Virus record (IMG/VR): IMGVR_UViG_2778261122_000004
Location: 1-28,652 of that record
DNA: 28,652 nt
Reading direction: 5' to 3' (one strand)
DNA from: a virus
Taxonomy: Duplodnaviria > Heunggongvirae > Uroviricota > Caudoviricetes
Part shown: positions 1,718 through 8,714 of the stretch, piece by piece
Layout of the letters: each line of letters starts with the position of its first letter
How positions within the stretch are numbered: the stretch's first letter is position 1
Made by a program: the position numbers and the translations under genes
Notes under the pieces: generated by a model
Databases searched by the model: none
Seen by the model: only the letters and a program-made list of their open reading frames with translations
Told to the model about the DNA's origin: nothing

Positions 1718-1799
1718 TGATTTATTCGGGGCTATATTTCCGACGCGCCAGCAAAATCTGGCGTCGGGATTGGCGTCCCGGATAGAGACCGCGACAGAC

Positions 1800-1823
1800 A
1801 CACGCCGCGAGCGTGTTTTTTTA
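1800..1823 (+). terminator. intrinsic terminator in nin region (tR3/tR4 analogue)
   Basis: 6-bp stem acacgc/gcgtgt (1800-1805 / 1811-1816), 5-nt loop, then T6 run 1817-1822. Confidence 0.6.
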
Positions 1824-1983
1824 TTGTCGAATGCACGCGCACATCTGAATTATGGTGGGCTGTGTGGGGGCGGAGAGATCCGCGCCGGTCGGTTTCCCGG
1901 TTACGCCAACCCTGCACAGTTCACCACCAGACGATTGGCGTCGTCGGTGGTGAGTTATTTAGAAACCACTCGAGGGCGTCATT

Positions 1984-5565: not shown

Positions 5566-5640
5566 GGGTCAGTCGCATAAAGGTCATTACGGAAGGCTGT
5601 TAACCTTCTTATCGTGGTTCGAGTCCACGCTGTCCCGCCA
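5566..5640 (+). tRNA. tRNA-like gene, anticodon GUU (Asn-like), degenerate D-arm
   Basis: Hand fold: acceptor gggtcag/ctgtccc (one T-T mismatch), anticodon stem gaagg/ccttc with loop ctGTTaa, T-arm cgtgg-ttcgagt-ccacg, discriminator G, encoded CCA; D-stem pairs only 2 of 4. Confidence 0.4.
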
Positions 5641-5645
5641 AATAT

Positions 5646-5721
5646 GCTGGTTTAGCTCCAATGGTAGAGCAGTCGCCTTGTAAGCGAATGGGTAGCGGTT
5701 CAAGTCCGTTAACCAGCACCA
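5646..5721 (+). tRNA. tRNA-Thr (anticodon UGU)
   Basis: Hand fold: acceptor gctggtt/aaccagc (7 bp), U8 A9, D-arm gctc-caatggta-gagc, anticodon arm gtcgc-ctTGTaa-gcgaa (one mismatch at 27-43), T-arm agcgg-ttcaagt-ccgtt, discriminator A, CCA; G1-C72 and C2-G71 fit Thr identity. Confidence 0.7.
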
Positions 5722-6640: not shown

Positions 6641-7078
6641 ATGAGTCGGTTAACCGCGATTATCTCCGCTCTGGTTATCTGCATCATCGTCTGCCTGTCA
6701 TGGGCTGTTAATCATTACCGTGATAACGCAATCGCCTACAAAGAGCAGCGCGATAAGGCCGCATCCACAATCGCTGACATGCAGAAGCGTCAACGTGATG
6801 TAGCAGAACTTGACGCCAGATACACAAAGGAGCTTGCTGATGCTAACGCGACTATCGAAAGTCTCCGTGCTGATGTTTCTGCTGGTCGTAAGCGCCTGCA
6901 AGTCGCCGCCACCTGTGCAAAGTCAACGACCGGAGCCAGCGGCATGGGCAATGGAGAAAGCCCAAGACTTACAGCAGATGCTGAACTCAATTATTACCGT
7001 CTCCGAAGCGGAATCGACAGGATAACCGCGCAGGTTAACTACCTGCAGGAATACATCAGGACGCAATGCCTGAAATAA
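6641..7078 (+). CDS. Rz: spanin, inner-membrane subunit Rz (i-spanin)
   Basis: Internal ATG 6641 gives [30 protein letters not shown]..., colinear with lambda Rz as recalled; the upstream in-frame extension from 6512 is rejected. Confidence 0.85.
6840..7025 (+). CDS. Rz1: spanin, outer-membrane lipoprotein subunit Rz1 (o-spanin), embedded in Rz
   Basis: +1 frame inside Rz; [27 protein letters not shown]... has a signal peptide with lipobox VSAC, Lys at +2 and a Pro-rich mature region. Confidence 0.8.
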
Positions 7079-7109
7079 TTTTTTTGCAAATCACAAAGTC
7101 CATTTAATG

Positions 7110-7134
7110 AGCCTCGCGATGCGGGGCTTTTTTT
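7110..7134 (+). terminator. strong intrinsic terminator after the lysis cassette
   Basis: agcctcgc / gat / gcggggct 8-bp GC-rich stem (7110-7128) followed by T7 run. Confidence 0.8.
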
Positions 7135-7283
7135 ACATCTGAATTTCACAGCGCATCTCACGCGCATATTACATCACCCGAGCCTTTCAGAAAGTTGAGC
7201 CTGAGAACTGCCGTATATGGTGGCGACCATCTCGGGGCGGCTTTTCTGTGAGACAGGCTCACTTTCTAAAAGGTAAAGACGCT

Positions 7284-7772
7284 ATGAACCAATTAGAAGA
7301 AAAGCTTCAAAGAATGATTTCCTTATACAAGGAAGATAACTGCCAAAAAGTTCCTGAAAACATCGCAGAGTTAATGGAATTGGCAAGTGAATTTTCTGGC
7401 ATGCTTAAGTCGTCAGGTGTTCGGTCAGCGTTCTTTGTTGAAATGCTGATGCACGGCGGACTTATGGCAACAATGAGACGTGTAATGGAAGACCAGAGAA
7501 AAGAGCCTCCTCAGGTATACGTTTTGTCATCGAAGAAAACTGGGCTAACCAAAATTGGGTATTCATCCAACATTCCACAACGCATCAAATCGCTTGGCAA
7601 CTCTGGACCAGACTGCTTGAAGCTTGAGTGCCTGATCCCTGGTGGAAGAGAAACTGAAAACATGCTTCATCGCAAATTTGCCGCAAAGAGAAAGCACGGT
7701 GAATGGTTCGCCCTGTCCAAGGATGACATTGAGGGATTGAAATCTGTAGCGATTACTTCCGATGGCTATTAA
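7284..7772 (+). CDS. moron protein with C-terminal T5orf172-like (GIY-YIG-like) domain
   Basis: ATG 7284 with AAAGG SD preferred over GTG 7248; C-terminal ..VYVLSSKKTGLTKIGYSSNIPQRIKSLG....ECLIPGGRETENMLHRKF..HGEWFALS.. fits the T5orf172 pattern as recalled; AT-rich by eye. Confidence 0.65.
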   Translation: MNQLEEKLQRMISLYKEDNCQKVPENIAELMELASEFSGMLKSSGVRSAFFVEMLMHGGLMATMRRVMEDQRKEPPQVYVLSSKKTGLTKIGYSSNIPQRIKSLGNSGPDCLKLECLIPGGRETENMLHRKFAAKRKHGEWFALSKDDIEGLKSVAITSDGY

Positions 7773-8159
7773 TGCTTGTTTAGAGCAATTTTCATAACAA
7801 CTCTTCATTACAAAGCCCATCTACTGGTGGGCTTGATAATGAAACCGTGATTTACATCCCCACAATCCGGGTATGTAAAAGATAGTTCAGGCGAGAACGG
7901 ATTTAACTAAATCTGTGCGCCACCAGTTAACGGCAGTACCACGAAACAACCCAAGCCAGTAAGTGGGGAAATAACACTGGCAGCCACTGAAAGATGAACC
8001 TCCTGCCTGATGGCAAAAAAGATTCTTTGTGGTGGCGGACTGATGGAAAGACATCGGTTATTGCAGAGGCCATTCAATGAGTGGTCTCGACAATGGCTTA
8101 TACCCTACACGGGATAACTTAACTGATATCCCTTTTAACGGATAAACGGAGCACAAATA

Positions 8160-8714
8160 ATGGCAAAGCTCACCGACAAACAAGAGCTGTTTGCCCGTGA
8201 GTACCTGAAAGATCTGAACGGAACACAGGCAGCGATCAGGGCGGGCTACAGCGAGAAGACCGCCAATGAGCAGGCATCTCGATTATTAGCAAATGTTAAT
8301 GTTCAAAAATTCGTTGCTGAACTTAAATCTGCCCGCGTTGAGCAGACGGGTATAGATGCCGCCTATGTTCTTCGTAGATTGGTTGAAATCGACCAGATGG
8401 ATGTGCTCGACATTCTCCTGCAAAATGGTGAGCTAAAACCCATTAAAGACTGGCCTAAGGTATGGCGCACAACGCTATCAGGAATGGATGTCGTGGAGAT
8501 GGTATCCGCAGATAGCGCCGCACTTCTGAAGAAAATCAAATGGCCTGATAAGGTTAAAAATCTTGAGTTGCTTGGGCGTCATGTTTCTGTTCAGGCGTTT
8601 AAAGACAATGTCAAAAATGAAGTGACTGGCGCTGATGGAGGACCAGTCAGAACAGAAATTACCAACTTAACGCCGGAGCAGGCTGCAGAGGCGTATAGAA
8701 AAATGATGGGCTAA
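8160..8714 (+). CDS. terS: terminase small subunit (P27-family-like)
   Basis: 184 aa; N-terminal [16 protein letters not shown].. is typical of this terS family (from memory); immediately upstream of terL. Confidence 0.7.

Follow-up and report, generated by a model that had tools for sequence, protein, structure and literature searches.

Does a small accessory gene lodged between the lysis cassette and the terminase genes of a lambdoid phage stand as a unit of its own, with its own promoter, or does it belong to a larger arrangement of the late operon? The question is raised by a stretch of 28,652 nucleotides (nt) from the IMG/VR virus record IMGVR_UViG_2778261122_000004 (Caudoviricetes), hereafter the window, which is classed from its sequence as a lambdoid Escherichia coli prophage. 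An earlier note on this DNA had proposed that positions 7145-7834 hold a moron, comprising a possible promoter, an AT-rich gene whose C-terminal half resembles T5orf172 and GIY-YIG nuclease domains, and a trailing hairpin. In the analysis described here, the region upstream of the gene was found to be a conserved, structured 5' leader RNA and not a promoter region, and the gene itself to be one of several interchangeable genes that occur behind that leader. The leader RNA and the socket-like architecture to which it belongs are more notable than the nuclease gene. Coordinates of the features are collected in Table 1.

The RNA of positions 7100-7300 folds with a minimum free energy that beats all 200 shuffled sequences (z = -3.7), and 34 base pairs (bp) were predicted by RNAalifold from a structure-blind MAFFT alignment of 24 leaders. 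A first helix, in which GCGC at 7151-7154 pairs with GCGC at 7162-7165, is followed by a long interrupted stem of approximately 22 bp, formed by 7182-7207 against 7244-7274, together with an inner hairpin at 7217-7230 made up of AUGGU and ACCAU under a GGCG cap. The Shine-Dalgarno sequence AAGG (7270-7273) sits in the second helix, where GCCUUU (7182-7187) is paired with AAAGGU (7269-7274). Changes on both sides of a pair were observed at 16 pairs of the MAFFT alignment, against 2.9 in shuffles (0 of 500 reaching the observed count) and at most six when the pairing partners were slid. Using an alignment fitted to the covariance model itself, and including non-seed copies such as those of P22 and HK022, 25 of the 34 pairs were found to be compensatory, against 9.1 in shuffles (0 of 500) and at most seven with slid partners; in the same alignment, 71 cells were compensatory against 12.9 in shuffles (0 of 500), and 96% of the cells were paired.

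The covariance model further recovered diverged leaders that had not been part of its seed, upstream of P22 rha (73 bits) and HK022 gp73 (57 bits), as well as second leader copies in three loci, one of which (in locus L174) precedes an HNH_3 endonuclease gene. Copies outside the window lie at 833-976 of L007, 71-213 of L008, 602-742 of L174, 8510-8625 of L009, and, on the opposite strand, 11112-11247 of L041. By megablast, the leader was found in 904 of 5426 complete E. coli genomes (approximately 17%), with up to four copies per genome, and in many lambdoid phages it lies ahead of genes of the Rha, KilA-N, ANT, T5orf172, and HNH_3 kinds. Searching positions 7050-8250 against Rfam 15 at both gathering and permissive thresholds (E up to 5) returned no family and three chance-level matches only. 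The leader is a well-supported structured RNA that is absent from Rfam. Since its stem pairs the Shine-Dalgarno sequence, little protein would be expected unless the stem is opened or cut, and the modelled fold may accordingly lower or gate translation of whichever gene follows, in the manner of the hairpins sequestering the ribosome-binding site that restrain homing endonuclease genes of the T4 family (PMC2988022).

A side observation on gene annotation concerns the P22-pbi entry (L007), in which the leader match at 833-976 ends at the ATG of 974-976, inside the annotated coding sequence (CDS) of rha (905-1510). The product read from this ATG starts MNELIANHDFDFRQLV and resembles other Rha cargo; the start annotated for P22 rha (orf201) probably lies 23 codons upstream of the true one.

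That the lysis operon is closed by a strong terminator, as the earlier note had stated, was confirmed by a terminator scan. The stem, AGCCUCGC/GCGGGGCU, spans 7110-7128 and its U-run reaches 7134; the element is conserved in HK620, epsilon34, and Louie, and the homologous site of HK106 and epsilon34 carries a rho-independent terminator annotation. The promoter proposed just downstream did not fare as well. Its hexamers, TTCACA at 7145-7150 and TATTAC at 7167-7172, are present with the 16-nt spacer, but are no better than chance. The final T is missing from the putative -10 hexamer, the two hexamers together are present in 15 of 62 distinct homologous leaders and absent from the other 47, and a promoter consensus scan of 6800-8300 returned 0 promoter-like sites when 1.8 would be expected in shuffles. 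The 62 leaders likewise yielded 0 sites passing the scan, and no internal promoter that would give an unstructured transcript in T4 fashion was found in the leader. Nor was a terminator of the nuclease gene's own found downstream, the hairpin at 7813-7834 being devoid of a U-tract. Lying on the same strand as the late operon, behind the terminator and lacking a detectable promoter, the nuclease gene would therefore be transcribed by read-through of the late operon.

The interval between Rz and the terminase genes had been likened to the classic lambdoid moron site, occupied in lambda by bor. The slot is indeed hypervariable and an accessory-gene hotspot, while the likeness to bor is positional only. 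An optional gene of differing base composition, set between genes that lie side by side in relatives, is found here (the slot is variable, and the guanine plus cytosine (GC) content of the gene is 43.4% versus 50.4% for the window), so that the description of the gene as AT-rich is right in direction, the difference being moderate and not striking. The features that would define the gene as a moron failed to appear: there is no credible or conserved promoter and no terminator belonging to the gene, and the region upstream is the structured leader.

What the slot displays instead is an ordered layout. Upstream, a flank consisting of the terminator, the leader of about 150 nt, and the ATG (7110-7288) is 86-88% identical in HK620 and epsilon34 by local BLAST; downstream, a flank at 7806-8168, 95-97% identical in HK620, Louie, HK106, and LS45, ends at the ATG of the next gene, which is terS in the window and a DUF2560 gene in P22-like phages. 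A census of what lies in between was taken by scanning IMG/VR with a 22-nt leader core, whereby 119 loci were obtained, 109 of them with a cargo open reading frame (ORF) of at least 60 amino acids (aa) running from the conserved ATG. Rha or KilA-N proteins belonging to one BLAST cluster, the scanned representatives of which share a C-terminal ORF11CD3 domain, account for 87 of the 109, and the T5orf172 family for 13 (nine of the window type and four of the epsilon34 type); the remainder comprises four other Rha, three other KilA-N, and two ANT/KilAC proteins. In HK022, the slot holds a KilA-N plus P63C protein. In phage Louie (L004, 2078-2548), a protein resembling Tad2 (Thoeris anti-defence 2) was observed in the slot, joined to the terminator without a leader, and the slot therefore also holds anti-defence genes.

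The joints of this exchange can be placed rather precisely. Across 40 IMG/VR loci, the nuclease gene is 98-100% identical, whereas the leader is 83-100% and Rz 70-98% identical, and the terminase of the window occurs in none of them; the contrast in identity between gene, leader, and Rz places recombination joints at the start codon. Both flanks are conserved in genomes without the nuclease gene, where the alternative state is another cargo gene and not an empty site, and no flank variant was found to be linked to carriage of the gene, as each of the two leader types and each of the two downstream haplotypes is found in carriers and non-carriers alike. By this comparison of loci, the feature is an interchangeable cargo cassette in the lambdoid late operon.

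The trailing hairpin of the earlier note, a perfect 7-bp stem (AAGCCCA/UGGGCUU, 7813-7834) without a U-tract, is present as described, and in the minimum-free-energy fold its stem grows to 9 bp and acquires an outer CAUUA/UAAUG helix. The extended stem-loop forms the first sub-block of a longer downstream region, begins directly behind the stop codon whichever cargo is present, and stands by itself in about 30 loci; within its stem, the substitutions C7817U and C7818U retain G.U pairing on the + strand only. The block as a whole is 95-99% identical in HK106, HK620, Louie, epsilon34, and LS45 though both flanking genes differ, and is near-invariant over 7940-8160. Its build is modular, with several sites of internal insertion and with recombination breakpoints near 7845, 7921, 8056-8075, and 8110; P22, HK022, Sf6, ES18, and Shiga toxin (Stx) phages contain parts of it. 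The RNA of the + strand is predicted to fold at -126 kcal/mol versus -93 kcal/mol in shuffles (z = -6.3, compared with -2.95 for the - strand), a figure to be read as a predicted fold because copies that are 95-99% identical offer too little variation for covariation across the block. No Rfam family matched the block and no PHROG matched any of its small ORFs.

Three further observations on this block may be recorded. It is common to lambdoid phages of HK97-like, P22-like, and myovirus type. That it might serve as cos or pac was considered and rejected because the block precedes three different packaging modules. A 35-aa ORF at 8010-8117 (+ strand; MAKKILCGGG...), annotated as a CDS in phage Louie, is without a Shine-Dalgarno sequence; its variable sites, numbering 7, 11, and 13 at codon positions 1, 2, and 3, are not clearly biased among these positions, start-loss and stop variants occur, no PHROG matches it, and it is probably not coding.

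Turning to the cargo of the window, a longer ORF starting with GTG at 7248 was ruled out as the gene; the start is the ATG at 7284, because homology with loci carrying unrelated cargo ends exactly there. The likeness of the C-terminal half to T5orf172 and GIY-YIG domains was borne out by hidden Markov model (HMM) searches, predicted fold, and invariant motif residues. Residues 78-151 matched MUG113 (PF13455; E 6e-15, 56 bits, cut-off 22.3) and T5orf172 (PF10544; E 2.8e-10, 41 bits, cut-off 20), both above the Pfam cut-offs, while the GIY-YIG model itself scored below its own (E 0.19, 12.5 versus 22.6). AlphaFold returned a confident two-domain model with a predicted local distance difference test (pLDDT) score of 87, in which the first 71 residues form a three-helix bundle and the rest follows a b-b-a-b-a-b-a order. 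When the C-terminal domain was modelled alone, its top structural matches were the GIY-YIG nucleases SLX1 and I-TevI.

Among 15 full-length homologues that are 20-47% identical, the residues Y79, K90-I91-G92, R100, E125, L128, H129, and E140-W141-F142 are invariant. The arginine lies eight residues after the glycine of KIG, and E125 and E140 are 15 apart, a spacing that would correspond to that of R27, E75, and N90 in I-TevI. The nuclease domain carries a net charge of +5 and matches approximately 38,000 representative clusters in an exhaustive profile search. When PDB sequences were searched by profile, no solved relative came up, and NCBIfam gave no match. As judged from the model and motifs, the protein is probably an active, small DNA endonuclease that belongs to the GIY-YIG superfamily and, within it, to the T5orf172/MUG113 branch. 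The same gene is present in public records as HK106 gp64 (YP_007151734) and RefSeq WP_016245257, annotated on the basis of its domain as a "GIY-YIG nuclease family protein", and is an ordinary member of a known nuclease family.

The N-terminal helical half, which the earlier note could not recognise, remained without a Pfam or NCBIfam match, being covered by the protein's own PHROG 4284 only; its predicted structure is a three-helix bundle with generic helical-bundle matches only. No sequence-specific DNA-binding module was detected in the N-terminal 75 aa by Pfam, NCBIfam, or structure search. An exhaustive profile search found the domain in about 15 representative clusters, always fused to T5orf172. 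The ratio of non-synonymous to synonymous substitution rates (dN/dS) against the 86%-identical copy of L174 is 0.14 for the whole gene, with 0.165 and 0.122 for the N- and C-terminal halves, respectively, so that both halves are, by this ratio, under purifying selection; at long range, the N-terminal half diverges faster than the nuclease domain.

Degradation in relatives, which the earlier note had raised as a reason for doubt, was not seen. The gene occurs in 82 of the 5426 complete E. coli genomes, 80 of the 82 copies being full length and 81 at least 99% identical. Many of the carriers have it at similar coordinates, either near 3.3-3.45 Mb or, on the opposite strand, near 1.33-1.47 Mb, and much of the count may represent one clonally inherited prophage lineage and not many separate acquisitions. 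Segment 7080-8157 shares 96% identity with HK106 and 99.6% with a P22-like prophage carried by E. coli LS45. The gene is found at 96-100% nucleotide identity in three phage architectures, namely the siphovirus HK106, the P22-like LS45 prophage, and the myovirus-type window. More distant homologues occupy comparable positions. Those of epsilon34 (gp68) and g341c (gp64) are 33% identical and sit in the same slot, gp68 aligning over both domains behind the same leader; the epsilon34 genome paper makes no statement on gene 68. A 48%-identical homologue (P0014), found in an unrelated prophage, is flanked by lysis genes and terminase/portal genes and preceded by a homologous leader with 71% DNA identity, and the 86%-identical homologue of L174 lies between an endolysin gene and a Terminase_2 gene. 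A search of genome contigs for related loci gave a single, uninformative locus. One 2.9-kb contig labelled "MAG: Bacillota bacterium" (L133, JAEWTL010000129.1) encodes a 100%-identical protein, a match that is almost certainly a binning or contamination artefact.

Table 1. Features of the slot between Rz and the terminase genes, with the domains of its cargo protein and the two neighbouring genes (window coordinates).
Feature	Position	Strand	Basis and remarks
Conserved structured 5' leader RNA, ending at the start codon	7146..7286	+	Fold z-score, RNAalifold, covariation
Intrinsic terminator ending the lysis cassette	7110..7134	+	Terminator scan and sequence; upstream edge of the conserved flank
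CDS, 162 aa, two-domain T5orf172/MUG113-class GIY-YIG nuclease family protein, PHROG 4284	7284..7772	+	Pfam, AlphaFold, dN/dS
N-terminal three-helix bundle (aa 1-75) with a net charge of -2 and without invariant residues	7284..7508	+	
C-terminal GIY-YIG-fold nuclease domain, aa 76-155	7509..7748	+	Fold, invariant residues
Extended stem-loop, CAUUA..AAGCCCAUC / GGUGGGCUU..UAAUG	7806..7841	+	Minimum-free-energy fold; without a U-tract
Near-invariant non-coding block, reaching the ribosome-binding site and ATG of the following gene (terS here)	7806..8159	+	Identity, fold
Rz spanin, upstream neighbour of the nuclease gene	6644..7078	+	Pfam Phage_lysis, E 1e-36
Terminase small subunit (Terminase_2), downstream neighbour defining the slot	8160..8714	+	Pfam, E 4e-38

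Which function best fits this arrangement? The favoured reading, to which we assign a probability of roughly 0.4, is that of a late-operon nuclease, throttled in its translation, that cuts non-self DNA during lytic growth. RNA polymerase modified by Q would pass the terminator from the late promoter and read the nuclease gene, the product of which would be made late in lytic growth and would probably be silent in the lysogen. Translation would be held low by the leader, whose stem length of about 22 bp would suit RNase III, and cleavage could, speculatively, relieve the block. The basic C-terminal domain, with its full catalytic-type motif of Tyr79, Arg100, Glu125, and Glu140, would cut DNA, while the acidic N-terminal bundle would most likely be an adaptor or oligomerisation module by which the site or substrate of nuclease action is determined, as it is in Odn and SNIPE. 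The targets, which form the weakest step of the scheme, may be rival prophages, satellites, and co-infecting relatives, with homing-like self-propagation as a special case. Such a role would parallel that of the other cargo, i.e., Rha, KilA-N, ANT, and HNH proteins; P22 rha, from the same slot, is described in a passage of one account (PMC4936722, citing Friedman and co-workers) as a late-operon gene harmful to phage growth in the absence of integration host factor (IHF).

Several points weigh against this reading. The second tyrosine of the motif (that of YIG) is replaced by Lys90, and the His/Tyr of helix 1 is absent, both being usual in T5orf172 proteins; to our knowledge, catalysis has been shown for few members of that family. 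PHROG 4284 has no assigned function, and searches with the N-terminal domain gave no pointer to any target. The covariation of the leader derives from a modest number of divergent lineages. Expression restricted to late lytic growth is deduced from gene order and the lack of a promoter, and a weak or non-sigma-70 promoter may exist. Finally, most of the socket cargo consists of DNA-binding proteins and not nucleases, and the shared role could therefore be regulatory instead of nucleolytic.

The alternative that survives best, albeit an unlikely one, is a free-standing homing endonuclease that cuts the slot or a nearby conserved site in relatives lacking the gene and is copied in via the conserved flanks. 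Homing would explain a near-identical gene in unrelated phage backbones. In its favour, identity in the same loci is higher for the gene (98-100%) than for the leader (83-100%) and Rz (70-98%), and the conserved flanks exist in phages without the gene. Genes of the T5orf172 type in ICP1, T5, and other phages are considered to be homing endonuclease genes and are often located beside terminase genes and at recombination boundaries (PMC10448857), and the ribosome-binding site is sequestered as in the homing endonuclease genes of T4 (PMC2988022) by a leader that an HNH_3 endonuclease gene also uses. The protein has, however, no DNA-reading domain, only an acidic helical bundle, whereas 87% of the surveyed T5orf172 homing endonucleases carry zinc-finger modules (PMC10448857). 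Furthermore, the slot exhibits replacement of one cargo by another of similar size and not insertion against an empty site, and the non-nuclease cargo (Rha, KilA-N, ANT) has spread alike, with the same breakpoints at the ATG. No flank polymorphism is tied to carriage, although the target could lie inside the alternative cargo, and the gene is found in just 82 of the 904 leader-bearing E. coli genomes.

A wider proposal, which seems rather unlikely as it stands, extends the favoured reading from the gene to its surroundings. The interval between the lysis and packaging genes of enterobacterial lambdoid phages would be a dedicated, RNA-gated socket in which the leader family and the 350-nt downstream RNA time and throttle the translation of interchangeable and potentially toxic DNA-targeting effectors (Rha, KilA-N, ANT, HNH, and the protein of the window), the last being an adaptor-guided minimal nuclease. 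As part of the same proposal, the helical N-terminal domain would recruit the nuclease to a component of a rival phage or satellite and not to a DNA sequence.

It is improbable, in our estimate, that the protein is a non-catalytic regulator using its T5orf172 domain to bind DNA or protein, for example at the repressors or promoters of co-resident elements, and so doing the job that Rha, KilA-N, or ANT proteins do when they fill the socket in other phages. The company it keeps would suit such a role, as 96 of the 109 cargo genes sampled behind the leader are Rha, KilA-N, or ANT, and the satellite repressor CapR is a T5orf172-related DNA-binding repressor (PMC10448857). Yet all positions of catalytic type are invariant across homologues sharing 20-47% identity, which would be unexpected under selection for binding only; the best structural matches of the domain are active nucleases, and a separate DNA-binding domain is absent.

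Still less probable is the moron of the earlier note, i.e., a gene with its own promoter that is expressed in the lysogen and provides host defence or exclusion by nuclease attack on incoming phage DNA. The upstream terminator would insulate such a gene, its GC content is below that of the window, and the Tad2-like gene of Louie demonstrates that conflict genes do enter the slot. Nucleases of the GIY-YIG/T5orf172 type do act in defence, SNIPE being an example (PMC13190303), and the only match returned by PADLOC was a weak one, at the level of the domain, to the candidate PDC-S57 (E 7e-6, aa 73-146); the neighbours are lysis and terminase genes, and PADLOC identified no known anti-phage defence system with its partner genes. 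Against this stand the lack of any sigma-70-like promoter passing the scan in the window or the 62 leaders, 47 of which lack the proposed hexamers altogether, the co-orientation with the late operon, the missing downstream terminator, and the occlusion of the ribosome-binding site by the leader. The protein has no membrane anchor or sensor domain that would hint at a means of discriminating self from non-self, and the slot-mate P22 rha belongs to the late operon according to the account cited above (PMC4936722).

A nuclease that assists the packaging machine, comparable with the HK97 HNH protein gp74 that works with terminase, is scarcely credible, for despite lying directly upstream of the terminase genes and being expressed with them, the gene is optional, is swapped for Rha, KilA-N, or ANT genes, and is combined with terminase and head modules of at least three kinds, HK106 possessing its own HNH gene besides.

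The remainder of the window is of mixed descent. Its early-right region is like that of Stx phages (ant, roi, nin genes, Q, and two tRNAs), and its lysis cassette is of P21 type, whereas the head and tail genes are 97.7% identical to those of temperate myoviruses such as vB_EcoM-611R5 and are related to Salmonella phage SEN34. The two tRNA genes, tRNA-Asn (GTT) at 5566-5640 and tRNA-Thr (TGT) at 5646-5721, both on the + strand, lie between the Q antiterminator and holin genes; in Stx phages, tRNA genes and toxin genes sit between Q and holin. An ORF for an Rz1-type o-spanin is nested in Rz at 6810-7025 (+ strand, +1 frame), with a lipobox-like LVVSAC and a proline-rich tail. Above the Rfam gathering scores, the Hfq-binding RNA isrK was matched at 1745-1821, the C4 antisense RNA at 1848-1931, and an a1/b1 target at 1732-1784, all on the + strand. 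Going by these matches, 1732-1931 (+) is an antisense switch of the P1/P7 immI type, a kind that Rfam also files as isrK, upstream of antirepressor-like genes.

Confirmation of the nuclease gene adds little by itself, given that it is an ordinary member of a very large family. The label of a moron slot, on the other hand, hides an ordered layout in which a conserved leader with its start codon and a trailing block bracket interchangeable cargo. The leader RNA, common in E. coli prophages, gives a handle on how and when Rha, KilA-N, and ANT genes are expressed. As these families and small nucleases co-occur behind the same leader, the arrangement suggests that they are functional alternatives in phage-phage conflict.

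Comparison with known systems helps to place the gene. HK106 gp64 and RefSeq WP_016245257 differ in nothing, the DNA identity being 96-99.6% with both flanks included. The bor gene of lambda lies in the interval between Rz and the packaging genes, is oriented against them, and is expressed in lysogens from a promoter of its own; the gene of the window shares its position, but neither its orientation nor a promoter of its own, and would probably be silent in the lysogen. The rha gene of P22 and phi80 likewise fills the slot, with a diverged version of the leader ahead of it, and Rha is a winged-helix DNA-binding protein, not a nuclease. The hairpins of I-TevI and mobE in the T4 family are alike in that a stable RNA pairs the Shine-Dalgarno sequence of a phage nuclease gene (PMC2988022), but a late promoter inside those structures gives rise to an unstructured transcript, whereas no internal promoter is seen in the leader of the window, which is also much longer, forms a conserved family of its own, and serves non-nuclease cargo as well. 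The putative T5orf172 homing endonucleases of ICP1, T5, and other phages share the Pfam domain, the vicinity of terminase, and the location at boundaries of genetic exchange (PMC10448857), and differ in being larger and mostly furnished with zinc-finger repeats, of which the protein of the window has none. SNIPE, in which DUF4041 is joined to a GIY-YIG nuclease, would resemble it as a nuclease of low intrinsic specificity that is directed by variable, non-catalytic N-terminal modules and whose nuclease domain is the best conserved part; this adaptor-nuclease combination is toxic when mislocalised (PMC13190303). SNIPE is, however, host-encoded, membrane-anchored, and of about 450 aa, in contrast with the 162-aa, soluble protein of a phage late operon. 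Last but not least, Odn (ICP1 Gp88) joins, much as the protein of the window may, an N-terminal specificity module to a C-terminal T5orf172 nuclease, with the Arg and Glu kept and the helix-1 His/Tyr absent, and has been demonstrated experimentally to be an active, origin-directed nuclease that needs its conserved Glu and serves the phage as a weapon against a rival mobile element (PMC8263062). Odn differs in possessing a RepA_N DNA-binding N-terminus with a known target and in belonging to a lytic vibriophage, the similarity found between the two proteins being confined to the nuclease domain.

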